In this document: piece by piece, positions 3,001 through 20,194 of the stretch
Position numbering within the stretch: the first letter of the stretch is position 1
Layout of the letters: each line of letters starts with the position of its first letter
Translations under genes and position numbers: made by a program
NCBI GenBank assembly: GCA_900230115.1
Contig: LT907983.1
Location: forward strand, 4,198,774-4,262,773
Source of the DNA: Spirosomataceae bacterium TFI 002
GTDB taxonomy: Bacteria; Bacteroidota; Bacteroidia; Cytophagales; Spirosomataceae
Length of the DNA: 64,000 bases
Reading direction: 5' to 3'
The notes under the pieces: generated by a model
The model's database searches: none
Told to the model about the DNA's origin: nothing
The model's input: the letters and a program-made list of their open reading frames with translations, nothing else

Positions 3001-6000
3001 TAACTTACATGCAACTGGTGCTGTATCTTATGCTTGGACAGGGCCTAACTCGTTTTATGCAGCAGCGGCATCAGTTAGTATTCCAAGTGCAAGTTCATCA
3101 GAAAATGGAACATATACAGTTACAGTTAGTAATTCGCTAGGGTGTTCTGCTACGGCAAGTGTGGATGTTAGTATTTTAAATGTTGCTACGCCTATTGTTT
3201 CTAATGCTCCTGTATGTACCGGAGATTCTCTAAAAATGGAATTACCTGGCTGGACTACTTATTCATGGTCGGGTCCAGCTGCATTTAGTGCTGCGGTTGA
3301 AGATCCTTTTATTGCAAACCCAACAACAAGTAATAGTGGAGTTTACAGTGTTACTGCGTCTATTGCTGGTTGCACAACCACAGTTACTGCAAACCTAACT
3401 GTCCGGGCATTGCCCATTCCAACAGCGAGTAGTAATCAGCCAGTATGTGTAGGCACAACGCTTAATTTAACTAGTGCCTCGGCATCTAGTTATTCGTGGA
3501 AAGGGCCCAATGGTTTTACTTCATCTGTTAGGAATCCTAATATTGCTGTTACTGATACTTTGCCACAAGGGACCTACACACTCGTTGTTAGCAATTCATT
3601 TGGATGTTTAGACTCTACAACTCACGATGTCGATGTATCTTTTGTAGTTCCTACAGTGAAACCTTCGGGAAGGGCTTGTTTAAGTGCTTCATATCCGTTG
3701 ACAGCGGGTGGCGGAGCTTCATATTACTGGACTGGGCCAAATTCATTTAGCTCAGGAAATCAAAATCCATCCATTTCTAATATCAGCTTAGCGAAACAAG
3801 GTGTTTATTCTGTTACCATTACCAATGCAGATGGTTGTACAGCTTCGGTTACAACTAGTTTAACGGTTTCTATTCCTGTTGCCACAGCTTCCAGTAGTTC
3901 ACCAGTATGTGAGGACGATATTTTAGTTTTAACTTCTTCTGGCGGAGCTTCATATGATTGGAGTGGACCGCGTTCTTTTGCTTCTAATATTCAAAACCCG
4001 AATATCAGTATTGTAAAACAAAATCAACAAGGAGTTTATACCGTTACGGTTACCGACTCAGTAGGTTGTGTAGCAACTGCCACTACAGATGTGGTTATTA
4101 ATAAAAACACCAACGGTAGAATAAATGACAATGGACCTATTTGTGAGGGACAAAATCTTGAATTAGATGGTAGGGGAGGAGACGTGTATTATTGGTCAGG
4201 GCCTAATGGTTTTTTATCTTCATTAGAAGATCCAATTATTAATAGTGCGTCTGCTGCTGCAAATGGAACTTATACTTTACAAGTTACGGACTCGAATGGC
4301 TGCTCAGCAACTGTAACATCTAATATCACTGTTTATCCTAGTCCAATCGCCAATCCTACAGCTACAATTGCAGATATCTGCGTTGGGCAGACCTTAAATT
4401 TACTTTCCACCGTAAATGATCAATATAGTTGGTCGGGACCTAATAACTTTAACTCAAATCAACAAAATCCTATTCGCACAAATGCGACAACCAACATGTC
4501 GGGTGTATACACCCTGACTGTAACTGATATTCCAGAAAATTGTTCAGCTTCGGCTAGTGTAGCTATTTCGATTAATACCATTCCACCGCCTCCGGTCAGT
4601 CCAGCAGTATCTCGATGCGGCACAGGAACTGTTACACTAACGGCCTCTGGCTGTTCTGGTGTTTACCAGTGGTATGATACCAACTCTAGTTCTACTGTGT
4701 TAGGAACAGGAAGTAGTTTTACAACACCTTCTCTGAGTTCAGGTCGATCTTATTATGTAAACTGTACAGAATTTACGTGTCCAAGTAGTACACGAAGACA
4801 GGTTCAAATTACCATTTTAGCAAATCCTACAGCTACTGCAACTGTAACTCAAAGGCATTGTGTAGGTTCAACTGCGAAGTTTACTGGTGGTGGAAATAAT
4901 GTGAGTTCATATGCGTGGTCTGGTCCTTTAAGCTGGACAAGCAACGAACAATCTCCAACAAAATTGATAAATGGAACAAATAATGGCGGAACTTATACCA
5001 TTACAACAACAAGGTCAAATGGTTGTACTGCAACAGCGACAACAAACCTTCAAGTAATTACAAATTGTGATAACATTTGCGGAAGCCAGTATGTCATTAT
5101 TCCTACCAACCCACTTTCATGTGGATCAACCAATGGACAAGTTTATATTTCTGCTACTAACAGTTATGAGACAAGTTTGGATGGAGTAAATTGGACTCGT
5201 GGCTCTGTTACCTACAATAATCTAGGAGTTGGTAATTATTACTTTTATGTAAAAGATTACGCAACTCAAAACATTTGTAAGAATGTAAGTAATACATTGG
5301 TTTCAACTACTTCGAGTTATTTTACGGGACAATCAGTAACTGCTGCAAGTGATTGTTATTCAGCAAATGGTTCAATTACACTTCAAGGAGTACAGCCAAC
5401 AGATGATGTAAGCTGGCTTGCAACCTTGAAAGCTCCAAAAGTTCCTGTTTCTAGTTTAAGTCCTTCAAACACCATAAGTAACTTAACCCCAGGGAAATAT
5501 TATGTGAAAGTTTCTCGTGCAAATGATTTCTGTTATGCAGAGAGATATGTGGATGTTCCTAACAATGGTACTTCGTGTACTAGTAATACCTTCTGTGATG
5601 ATAGTACTGTGCCAAATCTTTTTCCAAATGGAGATTTTGGGTCTGGAGCAAATGAAAATGGTCCTGTTTTAATAGAAACTCAATATGGGTATTCTAATTA
5701 TACTTGTTATGCTCCATGGGATGGTTTTTACTCCATAACTAATAATACAGATTGTGATGGAAATGGAGGAAGAGCATTCTCAAATCAAGCAGTTGGTTCA
5801 TGGGATGTGTTAACAGAAGATCATACTGTGGGAGATGTCAACGGGTATATGATGGTTATAAATGCCGGTTATACACCTAATATAGTTGTTGAGAAACTTA
5901 TTGGTGATTTATGTCCCAATACGCAATATAACTTTACAGCATGGATGAGGAACATTTCTCCTGCCTCAACCATACAGCCAGATGCAGCATTTATCATAGA

Positions 6001-9000
6001 TGGGGTAATTAAAGCGACATCAGGGGCTGTAACAGGAAACCAATGGAAACAGGTGGGATTCTCCTTCAAGACTGGAGAAAACACTACAGAGGCTCTTTTT
6101 GCATTGAGAAACATTGCACCAGGAGGATTTGGTAATAACTGGATTCTTGATGACGTTAAAGTGAGCAAGTGCCCACTAGAAATAAATTTGAGTGGAACTA
6201 CAATCGCCTGTTTAGGCGGTAATAGTGAAGAAATAGAAGCAACTATCAACGACCCATATGAAGAATACACTTATTTCAAATGGGAAAAAAGTGATGATAA
6301 TGGAGCGACATGGCAAAATGTTACAACGGTAGCACAAGGGAGTTATGTTTCTGGGAACATGAATGTAGACCTAACGCTTCCAACTCCAATAGTTTCAGCA
6401 TTGAGTGGCAGAATTTATAGAATTAGATTGGCTACCACAGCAGCGACTATTGATGATCCACAATGTTCGGTATATAGTGCTCTTACACAAATTATTGTTC
6501 CTCCTATTGAACTGAATGTGACTCTTCCAATTGAAAAATGTATTGGTTCGGGTAGTGTTGCACTTACAGCAACTGCGAGTGGAGGTACAGCTCCTTACTC
6601 TTATTTATGGAGGAATTCAGTGGGTAATACACCAACAGTAAATGTAAATCCAAGTGCTACAACTACTTATGTTGTAGAAGCCTTTGACGCTGACAATTGT
6701 CCAGCAATTGATTCTGTTATAGTAACAGTCAAAGATCAGCCAACACTCACTGTTACTATAGAAGAAGATTCTGTTTGTTTAAACGGGACAACTCATATTA
6801 TAGCTCATGTAGAAGGCGGTTCAGGTAATTTTCAGTTTACATGGTACGAGTCTGCAGATGGTTCAACCAACTGGACTACGATAGCAGGCGTAACAGATTC
6901 GGTATATTCTCCTAATACCTCAGTAGCAGGACAAAAATACTTTAGAGTCTTTGTAGAAGATTTAACATTCGATTGTAATGATGCTACTTCAAATCCAGTA
7001 TTGTTTACGGTAGTCCCACTGCCATCGGTTAACATAAACCTAAGTGCATCTCCAGTATGTATTGGCGGAGCAGTAAACCTGACTGCTAATGTGACCTCAG
7101 GAGCAGGAGCTATTGAATACCAATGGTATAGGTCAACGAATAATACAACATTCAATGCCCTAGCTGATGATACACTTGGAACCTATTCGCCCAATACTGG
7201 AACAGCAGGAACGACTTATTATGAAGTAGAAGCAGTGGCATCCGCATCAGGATGTACAGCGGCACGCTCTTCAAGTGTAGCGGTACAAGTGCTTCCTAAT
7301 TTCGATGTAGATTTGCTAGTAAATAATGCAGTAGTGTGTATTGGAGGCTCAGCGATATTAACCGCAGATACGATAAGTGGAACAGGCAATATAACTTACC
7401 AATGGTTTAACTCTTCCGATGGTGTGAACTTCTCATCTATAACAGGAAGTACATCAACATTAACAGCCCCAACAGGCACAACGGGAATAACTTACTACCA
7501 AGTACAAGCAACTGCCTCAGGAGCAGGTTGTGGTTCTGCAACATCAACACCAACATCAGTAGAAGTATTACCAGTATTTGATGTAGATGTAACAGTAAAT
7601 AACTCACCAATTTGTATTGGAGGAAGTGTAACGTTAACCGCAGATACTTCCAATGGATTAGGCTCAGTGAGCTACCAATGGTTCGGTTCATTGGATAATG
7701 TAACGTTTAACCTTATTGGAGGCGAAACCAATTTATCCTATAATCCATCCACGACGAATTCAGGAACGACATATTACCGAGTAGAAGCAACAGCCTCAGG
7801 TTCAGGTTGCGGAACAGCAGTATCGGATGTAGTACCAGTCGTAGTATTACCAGTATTCTCAGTAGATGTAAATCCAAGTTCGAGTGTAGTGTGTGTGGGA
7901 GGAACAGTAAGCTTAGATGCAGATACAACGAATGGAACAGGAACAGTAACCTATCAGTGGCAACAGTCGACCAACAATGTAACCTTTAGCAACATAGCTG
8001 GAGCTACAGGAGAAACCTATAACCCATCAACTGCAACAGCAGGAACATTGTATTATAGAGTAAGAGCGACAGCAAGTGGCTCAGGTTGTGGCACAGTAAC
8101 CTCGGCAGGAGTATCAGTAGAAGTACTTCCAGTGTTTGAAGTATCAGTAACACCAAGCAATACTACTTTATGTTTGAATGGTTCATCAGTGATTACAGCC
8201 ACAACAGTAAGTGGAACAGGAACAATTACATACCAATGGTTTAACTCTACAGATAATACGACATTTAGCCCAATATCAGGAGCAACAGGAGCAACAACAA
8301 CAGCACCAACGACTGCGGTAGGAACGACCTATTATAGAATAGTAGCAAATGCCAGCGGAAATGGTTGTGGGAATGCAACTTCAGCAAGTGCGGTAGTGAG
8401 AGTATTACCAGTATTTGATGTAGAAGTAAGTTTAAATAATGCCGTAGTATGTATAGGAGGAAATGTAACACTTACAGCCGATACGGTAAATGGAACAGGA
8501 ACAGTTACATATCAATGGCTAGAGTCCACAGACAATGTTAGCTATACAGCGATATCAGGAGCCACTGGCGTTACTTATACAGCCAATACAGCTTCAGAAG
8601 GCCTAAAATATTATAGAGTTCAAGCAACAGCCTCAGGTTCAGGATGTGGCACAGTAGAGTCAGATGAAGTATCAGTAGAAGTATTACCTGTATTTTCGGT
8701 AGCAGTAAATCCAAGTTCAAGCACAGTATGTGTGGGAGGAGCAGTCACACTAGATGCAGATCCAACGAATGGAACAGGAACCATAACTTACCAATGGCAA
8801 GAGTCAACTAATAATTCAAGCTTTACCAATATCAGTGGAGCAACGAACGAAATATATACCCCATCAACAAGTGCAGAAGGAACAACATACTACAGGGTCA
8901 TTGCCTCAGCAACAGGAGCAGGTTGTGGAAGTGTAACATCAGGAAGTTCCATGGTACGAGTACTGCCAGTCTTTGATGTAGACATTGCGATCGATAATGC

Positions 9001-11938
9001 AGTGCTATGTTTAGGAGGAAGTGCAGTCATCACCGCCGATACAAGCAGTGGAAGTGGAACAGTAAGCTATCAGTGGTATAATTCAACAAACAATAGCACA
9101 TTTACAGCAATCTCAGGAGCAACAGGGGATTCCATCATAGTACCAACGAACGCAGAAGGAACTATTTACTACCGAGTAGTAGCAACAGCCAGCGGCGTAG
9201 GTTGCGGAAATGCTACCTCAGCAAGCGGAAGTGTAGAAGTATTACCAGTATTCGATGTAGATATTTCGGTTACTAACTCAATCGTATGTATTGGCGGGGC
9301 AGTAAACTTAGGAGCCTCACCAGTAAACGGAACAGGGACGATCACTTATCAATGGTTGGAGTCACCTGACAATAGCACATTTACAGCAATCTCAGGAGCA
9401 ACAAATGTTAACTATGTACCCAATACTGCAACAGCAGGAACAAAATATTATCAAGTACAAGCGACAGCCTCAGGATCAGGATGTGGAACAGTAGAGTCAG
9501 ACGTCGCAACGGTAAGAGTATTGCCGATTTTCTCAGTAGATGTAAACCCTAGCTCAAGTGTGGTGTGTCTAGGAGGAGCAGTAACGCTAGATGCAGATAC
9601 AACAAACGGAACCGGAACAGTAACTTATCAATGGCAAGAGTCAACTAATAATTCAAGCTTTACCAATATCAGTGGAGCAACGAACGAAACATATACCCCA
9701 TCCACAGCTACATTAGGAACAAGGTATTACAGAGTCATTGCCACAGCAACGGGAGCAGGATGTGGGAGTGTAACATCAGGAAGTGTATCAGTAGAAGTAC
9801 TACCAGTTTTCGATGTAGCTATCGTAGTTGATAATGCGATAGTTTGTTTGAATGGAGCAGTGACGCTCACCGCCGATACGATCAGTGGATCTGGTAATGT
9901 AACTTACCAATGGTACAACTCATCAGACGGAAGCACATTTGCGGCCATATCTGGAGCAACAAGCAAAACATTAACAGCACCCACATCAAGCCTAGGAGTG
10001 ATGCATTATCAAATCATGGCCAATGCCTCAGGAGCAGGTTGTGGAGATGCAACTTCAGCCTCAAGTACAGTAACGGTAGAGCCACAATTGATTGTAGAGC
10101 TAGATCAAACATCAGCAGAAATCTGTTTGAATGAATCACTGACATTGCAGAGTACAACGAGCCATGGAGTAGGAACCATTACTTACCAATGGCAAAGTTC
10201 ACCAGATGGATCAACATGGACCAATATTGTAGGTCAAACAAATGACAACCTATCAGTAAGTACCAGCACAGCAGGATTATTTTACTACCGAGTATTAGCC
10301 TTTGCAAGTGGAGTTGGTTGTAATGATGCCACAGCAGTACCTACGATAGTACGCATACATGATTATCCAACAGTAACGAGAACATTTGTATCTCCACTTT
10401 GTGAGCCCACAAACGGAACGATCACATTTACATTTAGCGATGAGCCAGCAATTGACTCCATTCAATTTAGCTTGGACAATGGCTTAACATATCCATATAC
10501 CACCAATGACGGAGCAGGAACGTATACTATTAATGGCTTAGGAGAAAATGTGTACGAACTAAGTGCCCAATACAAAGGAGGTTTATGTCCAGTGTCGATG
10601 ACGAATGTGACGATGGAAGAAAGGCCAGCACCAAGCGTGACTACCACTTATGTAGACCCCACTTGTACGACTGATAATGGTACGATCACATTTACATTCC
10701 CAGATGAGTCCACAAGAACTGATATCAAGTTCAGTAGAGATGGCGGAACGACTTATGCAAGTAATATCGCAGACAACTCAGGTTCATATACGATGAATGG
10801 AGTAGCACCAGGAATTTATAATTTATTCGCCATATGGGGGAATGATGAATGTCCAACAGACCTAGGCAGTGTAACCCTCACAGATCACCCAACACCAATA
10901 ATCACAGTATCAGCAGATACCGTATTGTGTGAAGGACAATCTTACACAATTTCAGTTTCAAGCACTGGAGGAGATAATCCAATAACCTATACTTGGGACA
11001 ATGGCCTTGGCAATGCATTGAGTCATACAGTAAGTCCATTGGTAGATACCTATTATGTGGTTTCGGTTGTGGATTCTAATAATTGTACTGTAAGCGACAC
11101 CGTTTTTGTTGAAGTCAATCCAGTACCAGTAGTAACAGCAACAGGAGGAACATTCTGTGAATTCGATACATTAGAATTAAGCTCAACAGGCGTAGGGATA
11201 TTTGAGTGGACGGGTCCAAATACATTTACAAGTTCAGATCAAAATCCACAAATAGCGAACGGACAGCTCACAGATGCAGGAATTTACACAGTAGTATTAA
11301 CCAATAATTTCTCTTGCCAAAGTACAGCCACAGCAGAGCTTATTGTAAATGATACCCCACCATCCCCATCAGTTGTGGAGGGCGAAAGATGTGGTCCTGG
11401 AGTTGTAAATCTTTCAGCAACTGGCTGTAATGGAAATATTGAATGGTACGATAGCCAATTTTCTTATTCATCGGTATCCTCTGGCACAAACTTTGCATCA
11501 TCAAATCTAGATGAAAGTAAATATTTCTTTGTGAATTGTACAACTACCTTGAATTGCGAAAGTATTGAAAGAGTGCCAGTATTGGCAAAGGTAAATGAGT
11601 TATCAGTAGCTCAGCTTTTACCAATTAACTCTACTTGTTTTGGAAATATAGCCATAAACAACGGTCAACTAATCGCAACTAGGTTTGAGGATGGCGAAAC
11701 ATTCTCATTCAGTGAAGGAAGTACCTACAATAGCAGTACGGCAACAAGTTTGGCAACCATACCAGCAAATGGCCTACTCTCACAAAGTATAAATAACCCA
11801 ACAACGCTCACGCAATCATACACAGTAAGAGTGAATAGTGTAGATGGCTGCCCAAGAGATATCGTTGTGGAATACCAAGAGTCTTGTGAAGAGTGTAAAC
11901 CTTATTGCGAACCTTCATCAATTGAACGAGTAAAATAG
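50..11938 (+). CDS. Giant secreted cell-surface adhesin-like protein (3962 aa). Architecture: signal peptide, CBM4_9/galactose-binding-like domain, CUB domain, about 14 short SprB-type repeats, a second CBM-like domain, about 13 Ig-like ~93-aa repeats, a Cys-rich C-terminal domain shared with the next gene
   Basis: Uninterrupted 11.9-kb ORF. N-terminus MCLRHLVFGIFVFLLFSISTIAQ looks like a signal peptide (GTG start at 50). There is no in-frame stop between position 2 and 50, so the true start may lie upstream of the window. Recurrent motif CxGxxLNLxSSGGxxYxWxGPNxFxSxxQNPxIxNxxxxxxGxYTVTVTxxxGCxxTA fits SprB-type repeats. A CUB-like segment (CSGTYYDTGGNNSNYSNNEDY...LRIYDG...) is present. NGDF...DDV segments look like CBM4_9. 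Confidence 0.85.
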   Translation: MCLRHLVFGIFVFLLFSISTIAQNRQIELVTNGDFSDGRNGFSSDYNWNSSSNGGYDIDNDPNDVNSNYFSFYDHTTGTSSGRLIAANGSTNANDDVWKNNINVTSGQTYTMTVWIKSIYATNPSSIGWFVGGNQVGTTVVANNNWQQLTVTYTANFTGLATFSIRATSGESSGNAFALDDVSITSEVSPTCSGTYYDTGGNNSNYSNNEDYTQTFCAGAGSNIRFSFNQFNVETNWDFLRIYDGMSTSANSLGTFTGTNSPNTVTSSTGCLTFRFTADNIYNRSGWRAAISCVPDPGCGSISSVVINDLSGGADIDITGGATVYAGQLPNNWNIEATKTVGTGSIRFEVTGDNVQSNVENAGPYRMPNDNDPLNWGPGTYNIKITHYSGNSGTGNICDVEQFTLIIDQCAINNFQVSSNSTVCTGANLNLTSSGGGTGATYNWVGPNSFTSTQQNPTLPSVGAAASGVYFATVTNSGCSATASTSVSVTNAPSVSVTSQNANCGLNNGEVTFTFPDESSRTNIEFSTNGGSSYPTYVSDGIGSTTVTNLGPGTYDLWTRWGNDECPVDLPDVTIIRATGTLTKTADPTACSGAATPLSVSLQNAVGSTTYSWSNGLGTGANKTVSPNSSITYSVTGVDSQGCVGTANITVNVNALPVATATANSPVCSGGTINLNSSGGNSYSWVGPNSFSSGFQNPNITIASNVNAGTYTVTVTDANSCSSTAAVNVLINSGLTVTASTPASNICAGTDLNLFSSGATSYSWSGPGGFSSNSQNPVITNATVSRSGTYTITGSNALGCTASATTSVAVTINSPTASNDGPKCEGSTINLSAVGGNEYVWSGPNGFTSNIANPSISNANLSHEGIYTVTVSISGACPVTATTELSMHALPNILVSNTGPVCSGGNITLNASGGTSYVWSGPNGFSSSNQNPSIFNVNNSKTGSYTVTVTNASGCTATATTVVGLSFPSLTVSSDTVLCAGGTINLHATGAVSYAWTGPNSFYAAAASVSIPSASSSENGTYTVTVSNSLGCSATASVDVSILNVATPIVSNAPVCTGDSLKMELPGWTTYSWSGPAAFSAAVEDPFIANPTTSNSGVYSVTASIAGCTTTVTANLTVRALPIPTASSNQPVCVGTTLNLTSASASSYSWKGPNGFTSSVRNPNIAVTDTLPQGTYTLVVSNSFGCLDSTTHDVDVSFVVPTVKPSGRACLSASYPLTAGGGASYYWTGPNSFSSGNQNPSISNISLAKQGVYSVTITNADGCTASVTTSLTVSIPVATASSSSPVCEDDILVLTSSGGASYDWSGPRSFASNIQNPNISIVKQNQQGVYTVTVTDSVGCVATATTDVVINKNTNGRINDNGPICEGQNLELDGRGGDVYYWSGPNGFLSSLEDPIINSASAAANGTYTLQVTDSNGCSATVTSNITVYPSPIANPTATIADICVGQTLNLLSTVNDQYSWSGPNNFNSNQQNPIRTNATTNMSGVYTLTVTDIPENCSASASVAISINTIPPPPVSPAVSRCGTGTVTLTASGCSGVYQWYDTNSSSTVLGTGSSFTTPSLSSGRSYYVNCTEFTCPSSTRRQVQITILANPTATATVTQRHCVGSTAKFTGGGNNVSSYAWSGPLSWTSNEQSPTKLINGTNNGGTYTITTTRSNGCTATATTNLQVITNCDNICGSQYVIIPTNPLSCGSTNGQVYISATNSYETSLDGVNWTRGSVTYNNLGVGNYYFYVKDYATQNICKNVSNTLVSTTSSYFTGQSVTAASDCYSANGSITLQGVQPTDDVSWLATLKAPKVPVSSLSPSNTISNLTPGKYYVKVSRANDFCYAERYVDVPNNGTSCTSNTFCDDSTVPNLFPNGDFGSGANENGPVLIETQYGYSNYTCYAPWDGFYSITNNTDCDGNGGRAFSNQAVGSWDVLTEDHTVGDVNGYMMVINAGYTPNIVVEKLIGDLCPNTQYNFTAWMRNISPASTIQPDAAFIIDGVIKATSGAVTGNQWKQVGFSFKTGENTTEALFALRNIAPGGFGNNWILDDVKVSKCPLEINLSGTTIACLGGNSEEIEATINDPYEEYTYFKWEKSDDNGATWQNVTTVAQGSYVSGNMNVDLTLPTPIVSALSGRIYRIRLATTAATIDDPQCSVYSALTQIIVPPIELNVTLPIEKCIGSGSVALTATASGGTAPYSYLWRNSVGNTPTVNVNPSATTTYVVEAFDADNCPAIDSVIVTVKDQPTLTVTIEEDSVCLNGTTHIIAHVEGGSGNFQFTWYESADGSTNWTTIAGVTDSVYSPNTSVAGQKYFRVFVEDLTFDCNDATSNPVLFTVVPLPSVNINLSASPVCIGGAVNLTANVTSGAGAIEYQWYRSTNNTTFNALADDTLGTYSPNTGTAGTTYYEVEAVASASGCTAARSSSVAVQVLPNFDVDLLVNNAVVCIGGSAILTADTISGTGNITYQWFNSSDGVNFSSITGSTSTLTAPTGTTGITYYQVQATASGAGCGSATSTPTSVEVLPVFDVDVTVNNSPICIGGSVTLTADTSNGLGSVSYQWFGSLDNVTFNLIGGETNLSYNPSTTNSGTTYYRVEATASGSGCGTAVSDVVPVVVLPVFSVDVNPSSSVVCVGGTVSLDADTTNGTGTVTYQWQQSTNNVTFSNIAGATGETYNPSTATAGTLYYRVRATASGSGCGTVTSAGVSVEVLPVFEVSVTPSNTTLCLNGSSVITATTVSGTGTITYQWFNSTDNTTFSPISGATGATTTAPTTAVGTTYYRIVANASGNGCGNATSASAVVRVLPVFDVEVSLNNAVVCIGGNVTLTADTVNGTGTVTYQWLESTDNVSYTAISGATGVTYTANTASEGLKYYRVQATASGSGCGTVESDEVSVEVLPVFSVAVNPSSSTVCVGGAVTLDADPTNGTGTITYQWQESTNNSSFTNISGATNEIYTPSTSAEGTTYYRVIASATGAGCGSVTSGSSMVRVLPVFDVDIAIDNAVLCLGGSAVITADTSSGSGTVSYQWYNSTNNSTFTAISGATGDSIIVPTNAEGTIYYRVVATASGVGCGNATSASGSVEVLPVFDVDISVTNSIVCIGGAVNLGASPVNGTGTITYQWLESPDNSTFTAISGATNVNYVPNTATAGTKYYQVQATASGSGCGTVESDVATVRVLPIFSVDVNPSSSVVCLGGAVTLDADTTNGTGTVTYQWQESTNNSSFTNISGATNETYTPSTATLGTRYYRVIATATGAGCGSVTSGSVSVEVLPVFDVAIVVDNAIVCLNGAVTLTADTISGSGNVTYQWYNSSDGSTFAAISGATSKTLTAPTSSLGVMHYQIMANASGAGCGDATSASSTVTVEPQLIVELDQTSAEICLNESLTLQSTTSHGVGTITYQWQSSPDGSTWTNIVGQTNDNLSVSTSTAGLFYYRVLAFASGVGCNDATAVPTIVRIHDYPTVTRTFVSPLCEPTNGTITFTFSDEPAIDSIQFSLDNGLTYPYTTNDGAGTYTINGLGENVYELSAQYKGGLCPVSMTNVTMEERPAPSVTTTYVDPTCTTDNGTITFTFPDESTRTDIKFSRDGGTTYASNIADNSGSYTMNGVAPGIYNLFAIWGNDECPTDLGSVTLTDHPTPIITVSADTVLCEGQSYTISVSSTGGDNPITYTWDNGLGNALSHTVSPLVDTYYVVSVVDSNNCTVSDTVFVEVNPVPVVTATGGTFCEFDTLELSSTGVGIFEWTGPNTFTSSDQNPQIANGQLTDAGIYTVVLTNNFSCQSTATAELIVNDTPPSPSVVEGERCGPGVVNLSATGCNGNIEWYDSQFSYSSVSSGTNFASSNLDESKYFFVNCTTTLNCESIERVPVLAKVNELSVAQLLPINSTCFGNIAINNGQLIATRFEDGETFSFSEGSTYNSSTATSLATIPANGLLSQSINNPTTLTQSYTVRVNSVDGCPRDIVVEYQESCEECKPYCEPSSIERVK
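620..950 (+). other. CUB-like domain within the giant protein
   Basis: CSGTYYDTGGNNSNYSNNEDYTQTFCAGAGSNIRFSFNQFNVETNWDFLRIYDGMSTSANSLGTFTG...LTFRFTADNIYNRSGWRAAISC matches the CUB consensus (C..Y......Y.n...C......i.l.F..f..E...D.l.iyDG). Confidence 0.5.
1300..4600 (+). repeat. Array of about 14 tandem short (70-75 aa) SprB-type/Ig-like coding repeats
   Basis: Repeated units such as CTGANLNLTSSGGGTGATYNWVGPNSFTSTQQNP...GVYFATVTNSGCSATAST, CSGGTINLNSSGGNSYSWVGPNSFSSGFQNPNITIASNVNAGTYTVTVTDANSCSSTAAV and others occur at 210-230 nt spacing. Confidence 0.8.
6500..10110 (+). repeat. Array of about 13 tandem Ig-like ~93-aa (~279-nt) coding repeats. A three-copy ~837-nt super-repeat spans 7567-10080
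   Basis: Units begin LPVFDVD/LPVFSVDVNP/LPVFEVSV and contain VCIGG..TLTADT.NGTGT.TYQW...YYRV.ATASGSGCG. Unit starts are at 7567, 7846, 8125, 8405, 8683, 8963, 9241, 9521, 9800 and 10080. Units 3-4-5, 6-7-8 and 9-10-11 correspond one-to-one. For example, nt 8797-8865 and 9636-9704 are near-identical (caatggcaagagtcaactaataattcaagctttaccaatatcagtggagcaacgaacgaaa.atatacccca). Confidence 0.85.
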
Positions 11939-11986
11939 TTTTCAAATTTTATAAATAAATAGTTTACAATTAATTTTTAGTTTATC

Positions 11987-14932
11987 ATGAAAAACAATTA
12001 TCTAACCAATTTACGAATGTCCTCGAGTGGGGGTATGCGATTTGGATGGTTTTTCATCGGGATTGTCACTTTTCTAATGAGCCAAACTTCCTTTGCTCAA
12101 ACTGTGTGTAGTCCTGAGTTGAAATTTACCGTTCAATCCACACTAAACACCGCAGAGGGTGTAGATGACGCAACAATGCGTATAACAGGTTTGGATCCTG
12201 CAGTAGACTACGTAGTAGCCTATGAACTGGGAACAAGCTTTACAGGTAGTATCGCTAATGGAGTTGCTTACAGCACACTTACTAATGGCGTTATTGCTAA
12301 TAATCTGGTTAATCCAACACTTGCCGCGGGTCAAGAATACGTGGTTAGAGTTTATCTACCAGATAATTCTTGTTATGCTGAAAAAGTATATGTTTTACCA
12401 AAAGCATACTTTAATGACAAACCAGATAACACTGACTTGGAAATTACAATGACCAAAAGTGCTGATGCAGCAAATCCAGGTGATATTGTAACAGTAACCG
12501 TTGTTGTAACAAACAATAATAGTGCAACTGATAATCCAGGATACAACATCATTCAAGCTGATAATGTTGAAATAACTGTTACAGCACCTGGTGGTGGAGC
12601 ACTTACATTTAACCCTACTGCAACGGCATCGCAAGGAACTTATGATGGGACCTCTGTTTGGTCTGTTGGTAGTTTGGCCCCTGGTCAAACAGAAACTCTT
12701 GTTTTGTCTTACACTATAAATGAAAGAGGTATTTATGAAATAGCTTCTGAAGTTACAGCTGCAGATGGTGATGATTTGGATTCATCTCCTTCTACAAGTA
12801 GTATCATTGAAGATGATTATACAACACAATGTTTGTCTACTCCTTTTGACTATTGCGATGATGATGAATTCGAATTTCGTTTAGCGAATCCTGCAATGTA
12901 CAGTCAAATTAGATATTTGAAAAATGGTACACCTATTACTATTACTGCCGGACAATCTGTTGCTGGTGAATATAGAATACATGCTGATGGATATTTGATT
13001 ATTGAGTCTGTAGGAACTTATAGTTACGAATCTACTGATCCTACTGCTTGCGGATTTGAATATTGTTGTCCAATAATTGTTGAAGAAGGTGAAAAGCCAG
13101 ATTTAGCACCTGTTACTCCAGTATCTATTTGCTTTGAATCTCCAATTGCTGATGTTGTAGTAATTGAGAACATGAATGCTGCAAACGATGCTGCTCCTGG
13201 TTCTGACTTTGATATTGATAGAGGAAATCTTGTATACCAATGGTTCTCTGATGGTGGTACTGGAAATCCTATTACAGGGAGTGATAGCCTTTTGGGTTAT
13301 ACTTCTTTAACATTGAATTTTGATGCTCTTCCAGCAGCTCCAGGTACTTATACTTACCGTATTGTTGGAATGGACGACTTGCACCAAACTTGTAAGGATA
13401 CAACTGAATTTGTAGTTGTAATACAAGATATTGAAAAGCCAATTGCTGCTGCAAACTCGCCAATTTGCGAAGAAGAAACACTTGAGTTGACTACAACCAA
13501 TATGGCTGATTATCAGTCAGGTGCACCATTTACTTTCACTTGGTGGAATGAAAACGCCAATGGCGGTGCTTGGACAGCGACTGGAGATAGCGTAGGTAGA
13601 ACTGATGCATTGCCAGCAATGTCTGATGAATACATCGTTGAAGTTTCTGTTGCTTACACAAACTTTACTCCAGCTCAAACCGTGACATGTAGTAAAACAG
13701 ATACTGTGACTGTACTTATTAATCCATTACCACCACTTCCAGATCCTATAGACTATGTTTATTGCCAAGGAGTTACTAATGCAGAAATGGATTCATTAAG
13801 ATTAAACAACGAAGATGTTGCATATACCATTAGATGGTATCATGAATCAGATACTTCTGTGATTGATTATTCTTACCCAAGCGTAAGACCTTTCCCATCG
13901 TCTTTAACAGCGGGATCTGATGTATGGCAAGTGTCATTCTATAATGAAGGAACAACTTGTGAATCACATAGAGCTGATCAAACCGTTACAATAGATACTA
14001 AGCCTGATATGCCAGTTGTTAATAACTTTGCCTTCTGTGAAGCAGGTTTAGCTACTGACCTTACTGCAATTGCAGAAGCGGGACATTCCTTGATATGGTA
14101 CGCAACGGATAGTGTATCTACTGTGCCAGATACGGTTGTGGCGTTTACGCCTCCACCTTCAACAGCAACAGTTGGTATTACTTCATATTTTGTGTCACAA
14201 TACAATACAACTTCAGGTTGTCAGTCATTTATCAATGAATTTGAGGTTCATATTCTTGATAGACCAGATGGCTTAGCATTTGCTGTTCCTGAATATTGTG
14301 TGGATCAAACTACAGGTATTCAGTCACTTGATAACCATTTGACAGTTTCACCTGCAAGTTCTAGTGCACCTACTCCAAGCACGTCGTATAGTTGGGATTA
14401 CCCAGGACATGGAACTCCTGCAACTCCTCCTACGCCGACAACTACAACAGTGGGAGCAACTTATGGTACTGTAACAGAAATATTTACTTATGATTATGTT
14501 CCTGCGGATAACTTCCAAGTTGTAACTATCGATTGTCCTTCAGATGTGCTTCCAGTGCATGTTGTAGTGAATCCAAAACCAGCAGCAGAAGTAATTGCAA
14601 TCAGTGCACTTTGTATTGGTGACGAAGACGTAGATAACGGAACGCTTATTCTTACAAGGTATGAGAACACAGATGTTCTTGAGTGGAATAGAGGAGCTGC
14701 TTACAGTAATTTAGCAGCAGATAATTACATAATTGAAAGCCCTGTTGCTGAAGGAACGCACGGTGGTGTATTTGCATCAACGCTTCCTAACCCTGATACA
14801 AGCCAAGATTACTTCGTAAGAATTACGAACATCCACGGTTGTCAGCAAGATATACCAGTTACCTTAGATGGTAAAGATTGTATCTGTCCTGGTGGGTATT
14901 GTGAGCCTGCATCTATCACACCTAATTTCTAA
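11987..14932 (+). CDS. Large secreted surface protein (981 aa) with a DUF11-like domain, a CCPIIVE-motif domain and a C-terminal domain homologous to the C-terminus of the giant upstream protein
   Basis: Signal-like N-terminus (alternative start at 12035, MRFGWFFIGIVTFLMSQTSFAQ). The DUF11-like segment is DLEITMTKSADAANPGDIVTVTVVVTNN...GTYDGTSVWSVGSLAPGQTETL (about 12435-12800). The C-terminus ...ALCIGDEDVDNGTLILTRYENTD...GCQQDIPVTLDGKDCICPGGYCEPASITPNF aligns with the upstream protein's ...STCFGNIAINNGQLIATRFEDGE...GCPRDIVVEYQESCEECKPYCEPSSIERVK. Confidence 0.8.
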   Translation: MKNNYLTNLRMSSSGGMRFGWFFIGIVTFLMSQTSFAQTVCSPELKFTVQSTLNTAEGVDDATMRITGLDPAVDYVVAYELGTSFTGSIANGVAYSTLTNGVIANNLVNPTLAAGQEYVVRVYLPDNSCYAEKVYVLPKAYFNDKPDNTDLEITMTKSADAANPGDIVTVTVVVTNNNSATDNPGYNIIQADNVEITVTAPGGGALTFNPTATASQGTYDGTSVWSVGSLAPGQTETLVLSYTINERGIYEIASEVTAADGDDLDSSPSTSSIIEDDYTTQCLSTPFDYCDDDEFEFRLANPAMYSQIRYLKNGTPITITAGQSVAGEYRIHADGYLIIESVGTYSYESTDPTACGFEYCCPIIVEEGEKPDLAPVTPVSICFESPIADVVVIENMNAANDAAPGSDFDIDRGNLVYQWFSDGGTGNPITGSDSLLGYTSLTLNFDALPAAPGTYTYRIVGMDDLHQTCKDTTEFVVVIQDIEKPIAAANSPICEEETLELTTTNMADYQSGAPFTFTWWNENANGGAWTATGDSVGRTDALPAMSDEYIVEVSVAYTNFTPAQTVTCSKTDTVTVLINPLPPLPDPIDYVYCQGVTNAEMDSLRLNNEDVAYTIRWYHESDTSVIDYSYPSVRPFPSSLTAGSDVWQVSFYNEGTTCESHRADQTVTIDTKPDMPVVNNFAFCEAGLATDLTAIAEAGHSLIWYATDSVSTVPDTVVAFTPPPSTATVGITSYFVSQYNTTSGCQSFINEFEVHILDRPDGLAFAVPEYCVDQTTGIQSLDNHLTVSPASSSAPTPSTSYSWDYPGHGTPATPPTPTTTTVGATYGTVTEIFTYDYVPADNFQVVTIDCPSDVLPVHVVVNPKPAAEVIAISALCIGDEDVDNGTLILTRYENTDVLEWNRGAAYSNLAADNYIIESPVAEGTHGGVFASTLPNPDTSQDYFVRITNIHGCQQDIPVTLDGKDCICPGGYCEPASITPNF

Positions 14933-15028: not shown

Positions 15029-16978
15029 ATGATTTTAAACTCTACAGCAATGCGAATTATAAGAGCATGTTTGTTTCTCTTCTTGGCTGTAGCTTCATTT
15101 TCAATCCATGCACAAGATTGTATAAAGCCAATCTATAAAATAACGTGGAATAACGTTTCTCAACCTAACCTAAGTGATGGAAGCATCACAGTCTATCAAA
15201 TCCAAAGTGCCACTCATTACGAATTACTTTTTGGTAATGAAGAAGAATTTAATTTTGCGGAAGCAGTTAAGTTCAAGCCTGGAGAAGACAAAATAGAAAT
15301 TAAAGGGCTCTCTAACCCAGCTGGTACTGACACCTACAAAATTAGAGTTTATAATGGCGAAAACTGTTACAGAACAGATGTGGTAAAACTATCACAATTA
15401 TATTTTGCCAAAGATCTTGAGAATACAGCTGTTGAACTAATACAAGGTGTGGATAATCCTTCTCCAAAAGTGGACGATGTCGTCACTTTTACTACACTTG
15501 TTCAAAGCAAAGGAACATCAAAAGTTGAAAATCTAGAAGTAAAACAGTTTTTAACCGAAAGCTTAGAAGTAATATATTTCTACGCTGACAAAGGAACATA
15601 TTCACAATATGCCAGAACTTGGAATATTGGAGATCTCAAAGGAGGGCAATCCATTAAGCTTGTTATAAGAGCTAGAGTGAAAAGTACTGGTCTTTCCTAC
15701 CTGACATCCTACATATCTGGAATTAATAAATTTAATATTATATATGGTCAATCCATTCCTACTCAAAGTTCAGAGTATTCAATAGCTGCAACAAACTGTG
15801 TTTCGGTTCCGATTCAAATTAAGCAAAATCAAATATACAGTATCCGACTGCCAACATACAAGGGAGTTACTTGGTACTACAAAGATTTAGCAGGGAACTT
15901 CTCAGAAATAGATGAGTTTACAAACCCTTCCATTGCTGAAGTAAATAAAGATAGCTCACTTAGCATTAAGCAAGGCGGAGAATACACTTTTACCAAAAAA
16001 GTAGATGAATGTACATTCAATAGTTGTTGTCCTGTCATTGTTGAAAGCTGTGCAGGGCCTCCTATTATAGTGGATTCGGTTTATTGTAACAAGAGCGTAG
16101 ATAGCTACAACATTGTTGTGCGTCTTCAAAATGACTCTTGGAGCGTAGTAGAAAAGGTCTATTATGCTATTGCAAATATTAGTTTTCCCGTTTTAACGAA
16201 CTTCCTGAGAAGAATAAATGCATTGCCTTTGACATCCAGTTCAGGTTATGTGACTTCACTGGGAAACAGTACTTATAAAATTGAAAACATACCTGCTTTT
16301 ATGCCAAATGTCACTTTGGTTTCAACCGATATGACTGGTCAGTGCCGAACAGTAAAAGTTGTAAACGCTCCCAATTGCCAACAGGCAATTATAAATGAAC
16401 CACAACTGGCAGAAGCCACCATGTATTATTTACCTGGTCAAACAATGCCAAACTTAAGAGTAACTAACCAACCAAAAGGATTTAAAACACTTTGGTTCAA
16501 AGATGAACTTGGGCAAAATGAATTAGATAAAGGGAAATCATTTGTACCGGAAGAGCCTGGTAAATATTACGTCGCATTTAAGGATAAAAAAACTGGAGCT
16601 TTAAGTCAATTGACTATTGCGACGGTAAGAGACATGACCGAAGATCAACCTGGTCAGTTTGTGGATGTGGTTGTATGTGATTGTAAAAATCCAAATATGA
16701 TTCCAACAGGAAAAATTGAGGACTATACGGTAACGAAGGCGTACCCCAACCCAGCAAATGATATTTTGAATATACAGTATAGAGTTCCAGAAGGCTCAAA
16801 AACAGTAAGTTTATTTATATTTAATATCAATGGAAGGCAAATGGCCTCCTACGAATTAGATAAAAATAAAACAGAAGTGAAGGTAAATGTCTTTGATTGG
16901 ACAGATGGCCTCTATGTTTACAATATCATAACTGATGGAGAAAAGCGAGCAACACAAAAGATCATTGTGCGGCATTAA
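15029..16978 (+). CDS. Secreted protein (649 aa) with a DUF11-like domain, a CCPVIVE-motif domain and a T9SS type-A C-terminal sorting domain
   Basis: N-terminal signal (MRIIRACLFLFLAVASFSIHAQ, alternative start 15050). A DUF11-like segment lies at about 15410-15720. The motif ...GGEYTFTKKVDECTFNSCCPVIVES is shared with the previous gene (GTYSYESTDPTACGFEYCCPIIVEE). The C-terminus KAYPNPANDILNIQYRVPEGSKTVSLFIFNINGRQMASYELDKNKTEVKVNVFDWTDGLYVYNIITDGEKRATQKIIV is a typical Por_Secre_tail CTD. Confidence 0.85.
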   Translation: MILNSTAMRIIRACLFLFLAVASFSIHAQDCIKPIYKITWNNVSQPNLSDGSITVYQIQSATHYELLFGNEEEFNFAEAVKFKPGEDKIEIKGLSNPAGTDTYKIRVYNGENCYRTDVVKLSQLYFAKDLENTAVELIQGVDNPSPKVDDVVTFTTLVQSKGTSKVENLEVKQFLTESLEVIYFYADKGTYSQYARTWNIGDLKGGQSIKLVIRARVKSTGLSYLTSYISGINKFNIIYGQSIPTQSSEYSIAATNCVSVPIQIKQNQIYSIRLPTYKGVTWYYKDLAGNFSEIDEFTNPSIAEVNKDSSLSIKQGGEYTFTKKVDECTFNSCCPVIVESCAGPPIIVDSVYCNKSVDSYNIVVRLQNDSWSVVEKVYYAIANISFPVLTNFLRRINALPLTSSSGYVTSLGNSTYKIENIPAFMPNVTLVSTDMTGQCRTVKVVNAPNCQQAIINEPQLAEATMYYLPGQTMPNLRVTNQPKGFKTLWFKDELGQNELDKGKSFVPEEPGKYYVAFKDKKTGALSQLTIATVRDMTEDQPGQFVDVVVCDCKNPNMIPTGKIEDYTVTKAYPNPANDILNIQYRVPEGSKTVSLFIFNINGRQMASYELDKNKTEVKVNVFDWTDGLYVYNIITDGEKRATQKIIVRH

Positions 16979-17133: not shown

Positions 17134-18519
17134 ATGACGACCACAATAGAGAACTTAACACCAAGGCAAATCGTAGCTGAATTGGATAAATACATCATTG
17201 GACAAGATGATGCAAAGAAAAATGTTGCAATAGCATTAAGAAATCGCTGGAGAAGGATGAATGCCTCCGACGATATGAAAACGGAAATTGTTCCAAATAA
17301 CATATTGATGATTGGTTCTACCGGAGTAGGTAAAACAGAAATTGCGAGAAGACTCGCAAAAATTGCTGATGCTCCATTTATAAAAGTAGAAGCGTCGAAA
17401 TTTACCGAAGTTGGTTATGTAGGTAGAGATGTGGAGTCAATGGTGAGAGACTTGGTAGAGCAATCTGTTAACATGGTAAAAACTGCTAAAAAAGAAGAAG
17501 TAAAGTTAAAAGCAGCAGAAGCAGTAGAAGAACAAATTTTATCTATTCTGATTCCACCTGTTAAGATTGGTGGAAAAGCCAGTAACTCAGAAACGGAAGA
17601 TCCAAGTAAAATGAACGAGGCTGAGCTGAATGAAAAAACGAGAGAAGCCTTTCGAAAAAAACTTCAAAACGGAGAACTGGAGGAAAGGAAAATAGAAATA
17701 GATATCAAAACGTCAGCTTCGGCACCAATAGGTGTGATGGGTGGTCCTATCGACGATATGTCAATGATGAATATTCAAGACATGATCAGTGGCATGATGC
17801 CCAAAAAGAATAAAAAGCGTAAACTCAGTATCGCAGATGCCCGAAAGTACCTTTTGGAAGAAGAGTCCTCTAAGCTTATCGACATGGACGAAGTTAAAGA
17901 CGAGGCTCTTTGGAAAGCTCAAAACTTAGGTATGATTTTCATAGACGAGATTGATAAAATCGCAGCAAGTGGCGGCGGAGGCAAAGGAGCGGATGTTAGT
18001 AGAGAAGGGGTACAGAGAGATCTATTGCCCATAGTAGAAGGAAGCACTGTGAATACAAAGCATGGAAGTATCAATACAGACCATATCTTGTTTGTTGCCG
18101 CCGGAGCGTTTCACGTAGCTAAACCTTCAGATTTAATTCCTGAACTACAAGGGCGTTTCCCAATACGTGTGGAGTTGGAATCTCTTACAGAAGAAAACTT
18201 CTTTCAGATATTGAAGAAACCGAAAAACGCACTTACAAAGCAATATACAGCTATGCTGGAATCAGAAGGCGTTTCATTAGAGTTTTCGGAAGATGCGATG
18301 AAGGAAATTGCTAAAATAGCTTTCTTAGCCAATTCTGAAGTTGAAAATATAGGAGCAAGAAGATTACAAACTGTTATGAGTCACTTGCTCAATGATATTT
18401 TATTTGATGTGCCAGATAAGATTGGCCCCGATTCAAAGATTACAATTGACAAAGATTTGGTAGTTGAAAAATTAGGTGCTTTGATCAAAAACAAAGACTT
18501 AAGCCAGTATATTCTTTAA
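17134..18519 (+). CDS. hslU: ATP-dependent protease ATPase subunit HslU (ClpY)
   Basis: IIGQDDAKKNVAIALRNRWRR, Walker A NILMIGSTGVGKTEIARRLAKIADAPFIKVEASKFTEVGYVGRDVESMVRDL, and FIDEIDKIA...GADVSREGVQRDLLPIVEG all match HslU. No hslV is adjacent. Confidence 0.95.
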   Translation: MTTTIENLTPRQIVAELDKYIIGQDDAKKNVAIALRNRWRRMNASDDMKTEIVPNNILMIGSTGVGKTEIARRLAKIADAPFIKVEASKFTEVGYVGRDVESMVRDLVEQSVNMVKTAKKEEVKLKAAEAVEEQILSILIPPVKIGGKASNSETEDPSKMNEAELNEKTREAFRKKLQNGELEERKIEIDIKTSASAPIGVMGGPIDDMSMMNIQDMISGMMPKKNKKRKLSIADARKYLLEEESSKLIDMDEVKDEALWKAQNLGMIFIDEIDKIAASGGGGKGADVSREGVQRDLLPIVEGSTVNTKHGSINTDHILFVAAGAFHVAKPSDLIPELQGRFPIRVELESLTEENFFQILKKPKNALTKQYTAMLESEGVSLEFSEDAMKEIAKIAFLANSEVENIGARRLQTVMSHLLNDILFDVPDKIGPDSKITIDKDLVVEKLGALIKNKDLSQYIL

Positions 18520-18527
18520 TCTAATAT

Positions 18528-19271
18528 TTATCGATTTAACTGCATTGCAAGCTTAACAATATCTTGACCTTTATTGAGGTCGAGATTTTGTTTAGACACA
18601 ATTGATTTTGCTTTATGTCCGTAAGGTCCCATAGACTTGAAGAAAGAATTCTTTGTTTTTACAGGTACTAGTTTATTGTTAATAACAAAGAAGTACTCTT
18701 CGGTTTTAACAAATTTCCCTTCATATTTACTTCCTGGGGTAATTCCATAAGCTATTTCAATTTTATCTTTTGTATTTGAGAAACTACCGCTGTGCTGAAT
18801 GAGCAACATTGGTTCGCCTTCTAAAGCTATATTGTAGTAATACTTTTTAGCACCAGCTACTTTGTCATCCATTCGTTGGAAAACCAAACTATCCAAAGTG
18901 AACCTTGGCGGGGTAAGCTCTATTGCTCGGGTGTTTTTATCAGGACTATAGTAAATTACTCCTTTGACTACATTGAATCCAATAAAACCTGGAGAAGGTT
19001 CAGAGCCTTTTAATGTCACAGTTCCAGCAAACAATTTGTTGCCAAAATAGGGGTTCCCTTTGTACTTTTTTACAACCTTATCGGGTGAGTTTAGGGATAG
19101 GTTGTTGGCATTGTATTCAAACTCCAGAATGGTGTCCCCATTTTCATCTATCTCCTTTATAAACCCTTCAGAGACCGTTGGGACTTCGTTTTGGAAATGT
19201 CCTTTTGTAGGGTTTTGCCCGAAAGTGTTGAAAGAAATATAGGTCAGTAAATAAAGAAATAGAGTTTTCAC
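18528..19271 (-). CDS. Secreted hypothetical protein, paralog A of a tandem pair
   Basis: Signal peptide MKTLFLYLLTYISFNTFGQ. It shares KGVIYYSPDKNT.AIEL.PP.F.LD.L.FQ.M......GAKKYYYN...EGEPML..QH.G..S.TKD with the 19447-20190 protein. Confidence 0.7.
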   Translation of the reverse strand: MKTLFLYLLTYISFNTFGQNPTKGHFQNEVPTVSEGFIKEIDENGDTILEFEYNANNLSLNSPDKVVKKYKGNPYFGNKLFAGTVTLKGSEPSPGFIGFNVVKGVIYYSPDKNTRAIELTPPRFTLDSLVFQRMDDKVAGAKKYYYNIALEGEPMLLIQHSGSFSNTKDKIEIAYGITPGSKYEGKFVKTEEYFFVINNKLVPVKTKNSFFKSMGPYGHKAKSIVSKQNLDLNKGQDIVKLAMQLNR

Positions 19272-19446: not shown

Positions 19447-20190
19447 TTATTGGTTCAATAAATGAGCAAGTTTAATAATATCATTGGGAAGACTTAAGTC
19501 TAAATTATATTTTGATACAATTTCTTTCACTTTATGGTGATATGGCCCCATAGCTTTGGCAAATGATTTCTTAGGTTTTACTAGCACAAGTGTTTTTTGA
19601 ATCACGAAGTAATAATCTTCGTATTTTTCAAACTTCCCTTCAAACTCGTTACTTGACGATGTACCATAGGCCACATCTACACCATCTTTGGTACTCGAGT
19701 ATTTGCCGGTGTGTTGCTTAATTAACATGGGTTCGCCTTCTACTAATACATTGTAATAATATTTTTTTGCCCCTTGAATTTCCTTGTTCATTTGTTGGAA
19801 AATTAACCCATCAAGGGCAAATTTAGGTGGACTAAGTTCAATCGCTTGCGTATTCTTGTCTGGACTATAATAAATGACACCTTTGACAACATTAAACCCA
19901 ACCAGTCCTGGAGATGGATCGGAGCCTTCCATGGTTACTGTTCCCAAGTACCACTTGTTGCCATAATATGGGGTTCCCATGTATTTCTTAACCAAAGTTG
20001 ACGGTGTGTTGAGAGCAAGGTTGTTTCCATTATAGTTGGAAACCAAGATGGTGTCACCATTTGCGTTCACTTCGATAGTCGAACCTTCGGCAGACATCCC
20101 AACTTCGTTGAGAAAATAGCCGGTTGTTGTATTTTGACCGAAAGAATTTAAGCCAATAAAAGAGAGCAAAAAGATAGTAATGAATTTCAT
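19447..20190 (-). CDS. Secreted hypothetical protein, paralog B
   Basis: Start taken at the internal MKFITIFLLSFIGLNSFGQ (ATG at 20190-20188), 4 nt downstream of the nspC stop. Paralogous to the 18528-19271 protein. Confidence 0.7.
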   Translation of the reverse strand: MKFITIFLLSFIGLNSFGQNTTTGYFLNEVGMSAEGSTIEVNANGDTILVSNYNGNNLALNTPSTLVKKYMGTPYYGNKWYLGTVTMEGSDPSPGLVGFNVVKGVIYYSPDKNTQAIELSPPKFALDGLIFQQMNKEIQGAKKYYYNVLVEGEPMLIKQHTGKYSSTKDGVDVAYGTSSSNEFEGKFEKYEDYYFVIQKTLVLVKPKKSFAKAMGPYHHKVKEIVSKYNLDLSLPNDIIKLAHLLNQ

Positions 20191-20194
20191 AATT

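Follow-up and report, generated by a model that had tools for sequence, protein, structure and literature searches.

The locus studied here raises the question of how two large exported proteins could reach, and stay on, the surface of a bacterium when neither ends in a recognisable type IX secretion system (T9SS) C-terminal domain (CTD). The window, by which we mean the whole stretch of 64,000 nucleotides that was analysed, comes from Spirosomataceae bacterium TFI 002 (assembly GCA_900230115.1, contig LT907983.1, positions 4,198,774 to 4,262,773). It contains three co-directional genes of the plus strand in one reading frame, followed by hslU (17134..18519). Open reading frame (ORF) calls gave P1, a giant adhesin-like protein of 3962 aa read from a GTG at position 50 (50..11938), P2 of 981 aa (11987..14932) and P3 of 649 aa (15029..16978). 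An earlier, sequence-only reading had proposed that P1 and P2 share a novel Cys-rich C-terminal module of ~110 aa, distinct from the canonical T9SS CTDs, that looks like a sorting, anchoring or docking signal. Our analysis points instead to the last 17 residues as the candidate signal.

All three proteins begin with a signal peptide, as the sequence-only reading had stated; these were read by eye, with no predictor, and end in ...FGIFVFLLFSISTIAQ before N in P1, ...FFIGIVTFLMSQTSFAQ before T in P2 and ...LFLFLAVASFSIHAQ before D in P3. P1 and P2 have the general traits of T9SS cargo, namely this Sec signal peptide and no Pfam barrel or anchor domain. A Sec signal peptide excludes a type I secretion system and the lack of a beta-barrel excludes type V secretion. 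A T9SS is implied in the organism because the neighbouring P3 has a type A CTD; none of the ten window ORFs scanned is a T9SS component gene. Given the Sec signals, the missing barrel and the presence of T9SS cargo, a C-terminal sorting or surface-retention signal, used in place of a T9SS CTD, is the best reading of the terminal peptide, and one that we hold at a little under even confidence. A sorting, anchoring or docking role had likewise been the natural way to read such tails on Sec-signal adhesin-like proteins encoded beside a type A CTD gene. Unclassified CTDs have precedent, being present in 15/102 experimentally known T9SS substrates (about 15%; PMC10515386).

The two C-termini are homologous, as had been claimed. 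The last ~121 aa of P1 and the last ~127 aa of P2 align collinearly with 31% identity and 56% positives (BLASTP, E=4e-20), far beyond chance. Every conserved position that had been listed was found (C-x-G, NG-x-LI-x-TR[YF]E, GC-x-x-DI, C-x-C and YCEP[SA]SI), and the stop, placed 4-5 residues past the last of these motifs, follows it by 4 in both P1 and P2. The module with its tail spans aa 3833-3962 of P1 (11546..11935, plus strand), where it scores 146 bits over positions 2-132 of the A2 hidden Markov model (HMM), and aa 847-981 of P2 (14525..14929, plus strand). Within it the terminal peptide is CEECKPYCEPSSIERVK in P1 (aa 3946-3962; 11885..11935, plus strand), the CEP variant of the CVP-CTERM-type tail discussed below, and CICPGGYCEPASITPNF in P2 (aa 965-981; 14879..14929, plus strand). 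Exactly nine residues follow the last Cys in each protein.

As the sequence-only reading had it, the tails belong to neither type A nor type B of the T9SS CTDs. Neither TIGR04131 nor TIGR04183 matched them at E<=10, and no Pfam or NCBIfam family covers either isolated tail even at this threshold. For the type C CTD (ChiA type, cl41395) no NCBIfam match to the tails was obtained at E<=10, in a library whose possession of a type C model is unconfirmed. Assignment of the P1 and P2 tails to type A or B thus finds no support in the profile comparisons. Among the three operon proteins Pfam and NCBIfam find a type A CTD in P3 only (aa 572-648; 16742..16972, plus strand; PF18962 1.7e-13, TIGR04183 9.7e-12), again as had been stated. 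It might be supposed that the P1 and P2 tails are canonical CTDs of type A, B or C that have diverged past recognition. This is barely credible, because the isolated tails also failed to match PF18962, PF13585 or any other model, while those few family members that do end in a type A or type B CTD are picked up by the same NCBIfam library, the type B model matching the tail of one, and because the module, unlike CTDs, occurs internally in tandem.

The comparison with known CTDs is nevertheless instructive. Like the type A CTD (TIGR04183/PF18962), the element stands at the C-terminus of Sec-exported, repeat-rich Bacteroidota surface proteins and includes an Ig-like beta-sandwich right at the end, in the place that the type A CTD occupies in the paralogue P3. 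It differs in having no sequence match to type A, in that the P1/P2 beta-sandwich is also used internally as a repeat, and in that its terminal-specific part is only ~17 aa long and Cys-rich. A type B CTD needs a region of >200 aa. Type B (TIGR04131/PF13585 CHU_C) and type C (PMC10202324) resemble the tails as non-type-A signals of large Cytophaga and Flavobacterium proteins, and in the frequent company of Ig_7 ('CHU_C associated') domains, but no HMM of theirs matched the window tails. The type A motifs of the literature (PMC10202324) are not recognisable in the P1 and P2 tails either; the YPNP-type start present in P3, for example, is absent. Type B genes usually adjoin a porP/sprF-like gene (PMC9143113), and no such gene was seen beside P1 to P3.

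To delimit the family, a profile built from the two window tails only was searched among 1.84 billion proteins (cluster representatives). It retrieved 442 representatives at E<=1e-3 and 172 at E<=1e-10. A word-indexed homologue search with the P2 tail found no homologue, and one with a 32-sequence alignment returned 5 short proteins only. In an architecture survey of the best 150 of the 442 representatives, the module was the very last domain in 100, ending 0-16 aa from the stop. These relatives show that the "110-aa module" consists of two separable elements, a ~100-aa Ig/FN3-like beta-sandwich and a 17-aa terminal peptide. The homology of the C-terminal module stands, while the idea that the whole module is a terminal signal does not, since its ~100-aa body also occurs internally and at N-termini.

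The body follows the pattern C-x-G..N-x-[DN]G-x-I-x-L..Y-x-Y..G..Y..IP..G-x-I...L-x-NP...Q-x-Y-x-VR[IV]..GC..D..V. The 4000-5400-aa proteins P0001 to P0003 contain 16-22 copies of it in tandem, in alternation with Ig_7-like domains, and P0008 has copies back to back. By the A2 family HMM the body is also the N-terminal domain of nearly all P2 and P3 orthologues. In P2 itself this copy, which lacks the Cys-rich tail, covers aa 31-143 (12077..12415, plus strand; 38.4 bits) and begins with C-S-P right after the signal peptide, and the orthologues keep such a copy; the P3 copy covers aa 33-125 (15125..15403, plus strand; 24.9 bits). The module is predicted to fold as a two-sheet beta-sandwich with Ig/FN3 structural neighbours, and the AlphaFold2 (AF2) model of the P2 N-terminal module has a pLDDT of 75.9. 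No PDB sequence relative was found. On these comparisons the body is a widespread and newly recognised repeat family, predicted to be Ig-like, of Cytophagales adhesin-like proteins. Like Ig_7 (PF19081) and the SprB repeat (PF13573) it appears to be a Cys-stapled Ig-like stalk repeat, alternating with Ig_7 in the giant proteins, but it is a distinct sequence family with no Pfam match at E<=1 across 32 members. The novelty claimed for the module thus holds for the body, for which neither Pfam nor NCBIfam has a model; it does not hold for the terminal peptide, which is homologous to an element already catalogued (see below).

The terminal peptide has the consensus C-x-C-P-x3-C-[E/V]-P-x7-stop, and it is confined to C-termini. 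All 84 occurrences of the motif C.C.{2,5}C.P lay within 22 aa of a stop, and among 209,433 residues none was internal; C.CP alone had 70 internal occurrences, at the ends of internal module copies. The last Cys lies exactly 9 aa from the stop in 49/119 motif-positive proteins, and in a second large group, which bears a Spirosoma-type ...QTKRxxRIGDPR extension, it lies 18 aa from the stop. The pair after the last Cys is VP in 49 cases, EP in 32, LP in 8, IP in 8 and PP in 5, and the residues following the last Cys average 2.85 K/R vs 0.63 D/E. The same peptide follows the unrelated GEVED domain (PF20009) in at least 4 proteins and is therefore modular. In P2, aa 964-978 (DCICPGGYCEPASIT) form the most conserved 15-aa window across 29 orthologues (0.883 vs a mean of 0.546). 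This places the putative signal-like unit in the last 17 residues and not in the whole 110-aa module.

A pattern of substitution was also seen. P3 has the N-terminal architecture of P2 but ends in a type A CTD, and a few family members likewise end in a type A or type B CTD instead of the peptide. In P3 the residues V-C-D-C-K-N-P (aa 549-559; 16673-16705) form a C-x-C element ~13 residues before the type A CTD, so that the P3 CTD occupies the place of the P2 CEP tail. This position fits interchangeability of the CEP tail and the type A CTD. The alignments thus show, for the sequences sampled, a peptide that is specific to the C-terminus, modular, at a fixed distance from the stop, under strong constraint, and replaced by type A or B CTDs in paralogues.

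Three observations on single proteins or contigs concern the tail. The minimal members P0152 and P0153, of 233 aa, have besides the signal peptide only a single SprB-like repeat, a single module and a CVP-type tail, and would be handy small constructs for work on tail function. A partial ORF (L038, 3-965), with a sub-threshold match to the thrombospondin type 3 repeat (20.5 bits), ends in ...CVSCVSKCVPIVITLAQRRR, a CVP-type tail apparently without a preceding module, and lies two genes upstream of a 1888-aa CVP-CTERM protein. The C-terminus of P0147 reads ...SLIHISEPTRPY, in which LIHISEPTR is the translated Nextera adapter CTTATACACATCTCCGAGCCCACGAGA; this database protein is truncated by adapter read-through.

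A relative of the terminal peptide is already modelled in NCBIfam, as NF058574.1 ('CVP_CTERM: CVP-CTERM putative sorting domain-containing protein'), with 17 positions and a 19-bit cutoff. When the family tails were scanned against NCBIfam release 20, this model matched 12/32 and 58/147 of them. In the Spirosoma proteins P0018 and P0024 it covers CSCPAEVCVPFVISQSK at 25 bits. It did not match full-length P1 or P2 (E<=1), nor their ~120-aa tails or 35-aa terminal peptides (E<=10), and the P2-type orthologue P0016 was likewise missed. The P2 tail is nonetheless clearly homologous to the tail of the NF058574.1-positive P0018 (BLASTP, E=2e-16), with CICPGGYCEPASIT opposite CSCPAEVCVPFVIS and the C-x-C-P-x3-C-x-P residues aligned, and the two-tail profile retrieves NF058574.1-positive members through profile positions 126-127 of 128. 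In both window tails the last-Cys distance of 9 is the modal value, and the eponymous Val is Glu. The suggestion that the motif might belong to a domain family already described is thus half right, in that NF058574.1 models its relatives and misses the window tails. No mention of CVP-CTERM was found in the literature searched, and reviews give only type A, B and C CTDs (PMC10202324; PMC10515386). The window tails are best described, on these alignments, as a divergent CEP form of a catalogued but experimentally uncharacterised putative sorting signal.

The two forms agree in their extreme C-terminal position, in the C-x-C-P-x3-C-x-P core with a short strand after it, in the preceding module, in host types (DUF11/CLIPPER and Ig_7) and in the order Cytophagales. 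The window tails differ by Glu for Val and by a GGY or KPY spacer; they have nine residues after the last Cys, without the QTKRxxRIGDPR extension, and in P2 these include no basic ones. NF058574.1 catches 58 of the 147 sampled tails and misses the CEP tails tested, from the window organism and from the Emticicia, Lacihabitans, Jiulongibacter and Arcticibacterium orthologues. The named CVP-type members are Spirosoma proteins, called only DUF11 or Ig-like. In PEP-CTERM/exosortase, GlyGly-CTERM/rhombosortase and LPXTG/sortase systems, a transmembrane helix lies between the motif and a basic cluster, and a dedicated sorting enzyme co-occurs. The CVP/CEP tails resemble these signals as a short C-terminal motif followed by basic residues on many unrelated surface proteins of one lineage, but the hydrophobic residues in them number only 3-6, and no enzyme emerged as a candidate partner.

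How such a peptide might work is suggested in part by its cysteines. The mature proteins contain 100 (P1), 22 (P2) and 12 (P3) Cys residues, all even numbers, and 28/29 P2 orthologues have 22 or 28. The tail cysteines are therefore likely to form intramolecular disulfides. Free-Cys docking, docking by intermolecular disulfides and lipidation were rejected on the same counts. We propose that, after Sec export, the three tail cysteines would pair within the protein to make a rigid knot, from which a short end of nine residues, in most of the family a basic one, would project freely. This end would act as a C-terminal sorting or surface-retention signal, taking the place held by a type A or B CTD in paralogues such as P3. 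In this way P1 and P2 would be brought to the cell surface and kept there, and P3 would be exported and anchored to lipopolysaccharide (LPS) by the standard type A route. The signal could be read by the T9SS, by a receptor resembling PorV/PorP or by some other machine.

Several points weigh against this proposal. NCBI itself grades the CVP-CTERM sorting role 'putative', and the window tails reach no NF058574.1 score even at E<=10. Past the last Cys, basic residues are absent from the P2 tail (EPASITPNF), and in the P1 tail (EPSSIERVK) 2 K/R are balanced by 2 D/E; most members differ in this. As the tail was part of the query profile, ascertainment accounts in part for the enrichment of terminal tails; it does not account for the internal lack of the third Cys-x-Pro. 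The remaining points are shared with a different account of the peptide, in which the tail could be a mere structural connector stub. Here it would be a Cys-knot connector plus the start of a would-be next beta-sandwich, closing off and stabilising the last domain with no targeting role, and P1 and P2 would be exported through some other feature. In agreement with this, tail-like elements of C-x-P plus a strand occur internally: the 70 internal module ends carry the same C-x-C-P, the module-module linkers of P0008 read C-x-x-P-C-[VI]-x-P-x-[FY], and the CCP[VFI]IVE connectors are highly conserved as well. The N-modules of P2 and P3 begin C-x-P-x-x-[FY]-T, those of their orthologues C-x-(x)-P-x-[FY]-T-[IV], and in the AF2 model that Cys-x-Pro precedes the first main beta-strand (residues 11-16) by a few residues. 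By the even Cys counts, every tail cysteine would be taken up inside its own protein, and the AF2 model has low confidence over the last 20 aa (pLDDT ~51).

Other observations sit poorly with a structural cap. The third Cys-x-Pro is never internal (0 vs 84), the spacing of 9 residues before the stop is constant and the end basic, the peptide also follows the GEVED domain, and it is the most conserved window of P2. A cap would moreover leave unanswered how a Sec-exported protein of 3962 aa without a CTD leaves the periplasm. We regard the cap as unlikely, though with appreciable weight, both in its denial of a targeting role and in its appeal to some other export feature.

The connectors concerned were also seen in the window and in Spirosoma. 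C-C-P-[VIF]-I-V-E is common to P2, in the internal connector YCCPIIVEEGEKPDL (aa 359-373; 13061..13105, plus strand), which is the second most conserved P2 window across the 29 orthologues, and to P3 (aa 332-340; 16022-16048). In Spirosoma proteins this motif (CPDFSCCPFIVEED) immediately precedes the terminal module. YCCPIIVEEGEKPDL is tail-like in having C-x-P and then a hydrophobic strand, but acidic residues come next, not basic ones.

The arrangement of the three genes raises a further possibility, that the tails serve in assembly. A genome scan with the closer alignment A3 found 33 loci, all from Cytophagales/Spirosomataceae (Emticicia, Lacihabitans, Jiulongibacter, Arcticibacterium, Leadbetterella and metagenome-assembled genomes, MAGs). 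The order was the same at 30 of them, a P1-like gene (module plus tail), a P2-like gene (N-module, then C-module plus tail) and a P3-like gene (N-module, then type A CTD), and it was also found at locus L034. All the related loci are cut within the P1-like gene, which leaves the 5' side of the operon outside the data, as in the window. In 24 of the related loci hslU adjoins the operon. Two loci (L012 and L019) have an extra gene that encodes a P2-like N-terminal region and a tail. An Emticicia-like P2/P3 operon, with 49% identity to the query, was also present in a contig binned as a 'Cyanobium sp. NIES-981' MAG (L005, CALRLS020000467.1), probably by contamination of the bin.

This order would suit head-to-tail docking, in which the C-module and tail of P1 bind the N-module of P2 and those of P2 bind the N-module of P3, giving a P3-P2-P1 fibre tethered by anchoring of the P3 type A CTD to anionic lipopolysaccharide (A-LPS). 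It comes close to the idea in the sequence-only reading that the module docks onto the T9SS cargo encoded just downstream. In the operon the tails of P1 and P2 are matched in number by the tail-less N-modules of P2 and P3, exactly two of each, its order is kept in the 30 Spirosomataceae loci, the proteins added at L012 and L019 again have a P2-like N-terminal region as well as a tail, and P1 carries CBM/CUB-like tip domains. The synteny, however, is orthologous conservation within one clade and not independent evidence. CVP-type genes on the other contigs scanned stand alone, with housekeeping genes downstream (DHFR, YdjC, 3-keto-disaccharide hydrolase, glutamine synthetase), and the small 233-aa tail-bearing proteins exist. 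In addition the N-modules look complete and not strand-deficient, no free Cys is available for covalent docking, and docking by itself does not explain the crossing of the outer membrane. We consider both the docking chain and its tethering through P3 quite unlikely. As a general rule, docking onto a downstream T9SS cargo does not survive these data, and general adjacency of tail genes to a type A CTD partner was rejected, the metagenome contexts scanned having no such partner. A donor-strand version, with the tail as an orphan A-strand for the N-module, is unsupported, as the N-modules have their own C-x-P and AF2 models complete sandwiches.

The sorting and docking proposals could also be combined. 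In that case the CVP/CEP tail would be a fourth outer-membrane sorting or anchoring class that at the same time directs head-to-tail assembly of a P1-P2-P3 adhesive fibre tethered by the P3 type A CTD, which we think decidedly improbable. The same holds, at the same low confidence, for its details, in which the signal would be read by the T9SS or another receptor, the P1 tail would engage the P2 N-module and the P2 tail the P3 N-module.

The remaining features of the locus describe the proteins that carry the tails. P1 has 21 Ig_7 repeats, a CUB domain (PF00431, 1.3e-10), SprB-like repeats and CBM/MAM-like N-terminal domains in Pfam, the SprB- and MAM-like matches being weak. Its CBM/MAM-like jelly-roll regions lie at window positions 119-900 and about 5300-5900 (aa ~24-290 and ~1760-1930; MAM match weak). 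Together with the CUB domain they point to a tip that binds carbohydrate or another ligand, which is unusual beside stalk repeats of the Ig_7 kind. Because the P1 frame stays open back to base 2 (window 1-139), the GTG at 50 is an uncertain start, and the gene could start before the window does. P2 is identical to the NCBI entry 'hypothetical protein SAMN06298216_3446' of Spirosomataceae bacterium TFI 002 and contains a DUF11/CLIPPER domain (aa 150-271; 12434..12799, plus strand; PF01345 2.8e-12). DUF11, a stalk domain with isopeptide bonds in fibrillar adhesins, has recently been given the name CLIPPER (bioRxiv 10.1101/2025.04.25.650565). P3 is a paralogue of the N-terminal half of P2, with the module, DUF11/CLIPPER and SCCPVIVES followed by its type A CTD.

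Stop codons are present in the in-frame read-through between the genes. At the DNA level P1 to P3 showed no tandem repeats, and Rfam had no match for the region. Beyond the operon, hslV is not evident beside hslU within the window, and the minus-strand ORFs 18528-19271 and 19447-20289, which follow hslU, have no Pfam match.

Three CTD models underlie the prediction of T9SS substrates. The terminal peptide is present on at least several hundred surface proteins of Cytophagales, adhesins of 4000-5000 aa among them, and these proteins go under the annotations 'hypothetical', 'DUF11' or 'Ig-like'. The broader alignment obtained here is supplied for a better CVP-CTERM model. The conserved three-gene operon, present in cultivable genera, provides a tractable system in which the tail can be examined as a secretion signal, an anchor or a docking element. 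If the tail were both a sorting class and an assembly element, it would represent a new way of building a surface filament in the Bacteroidota. It is in any case a well-defined candidate for a fourth C-terminal sorting signal in this phylum.

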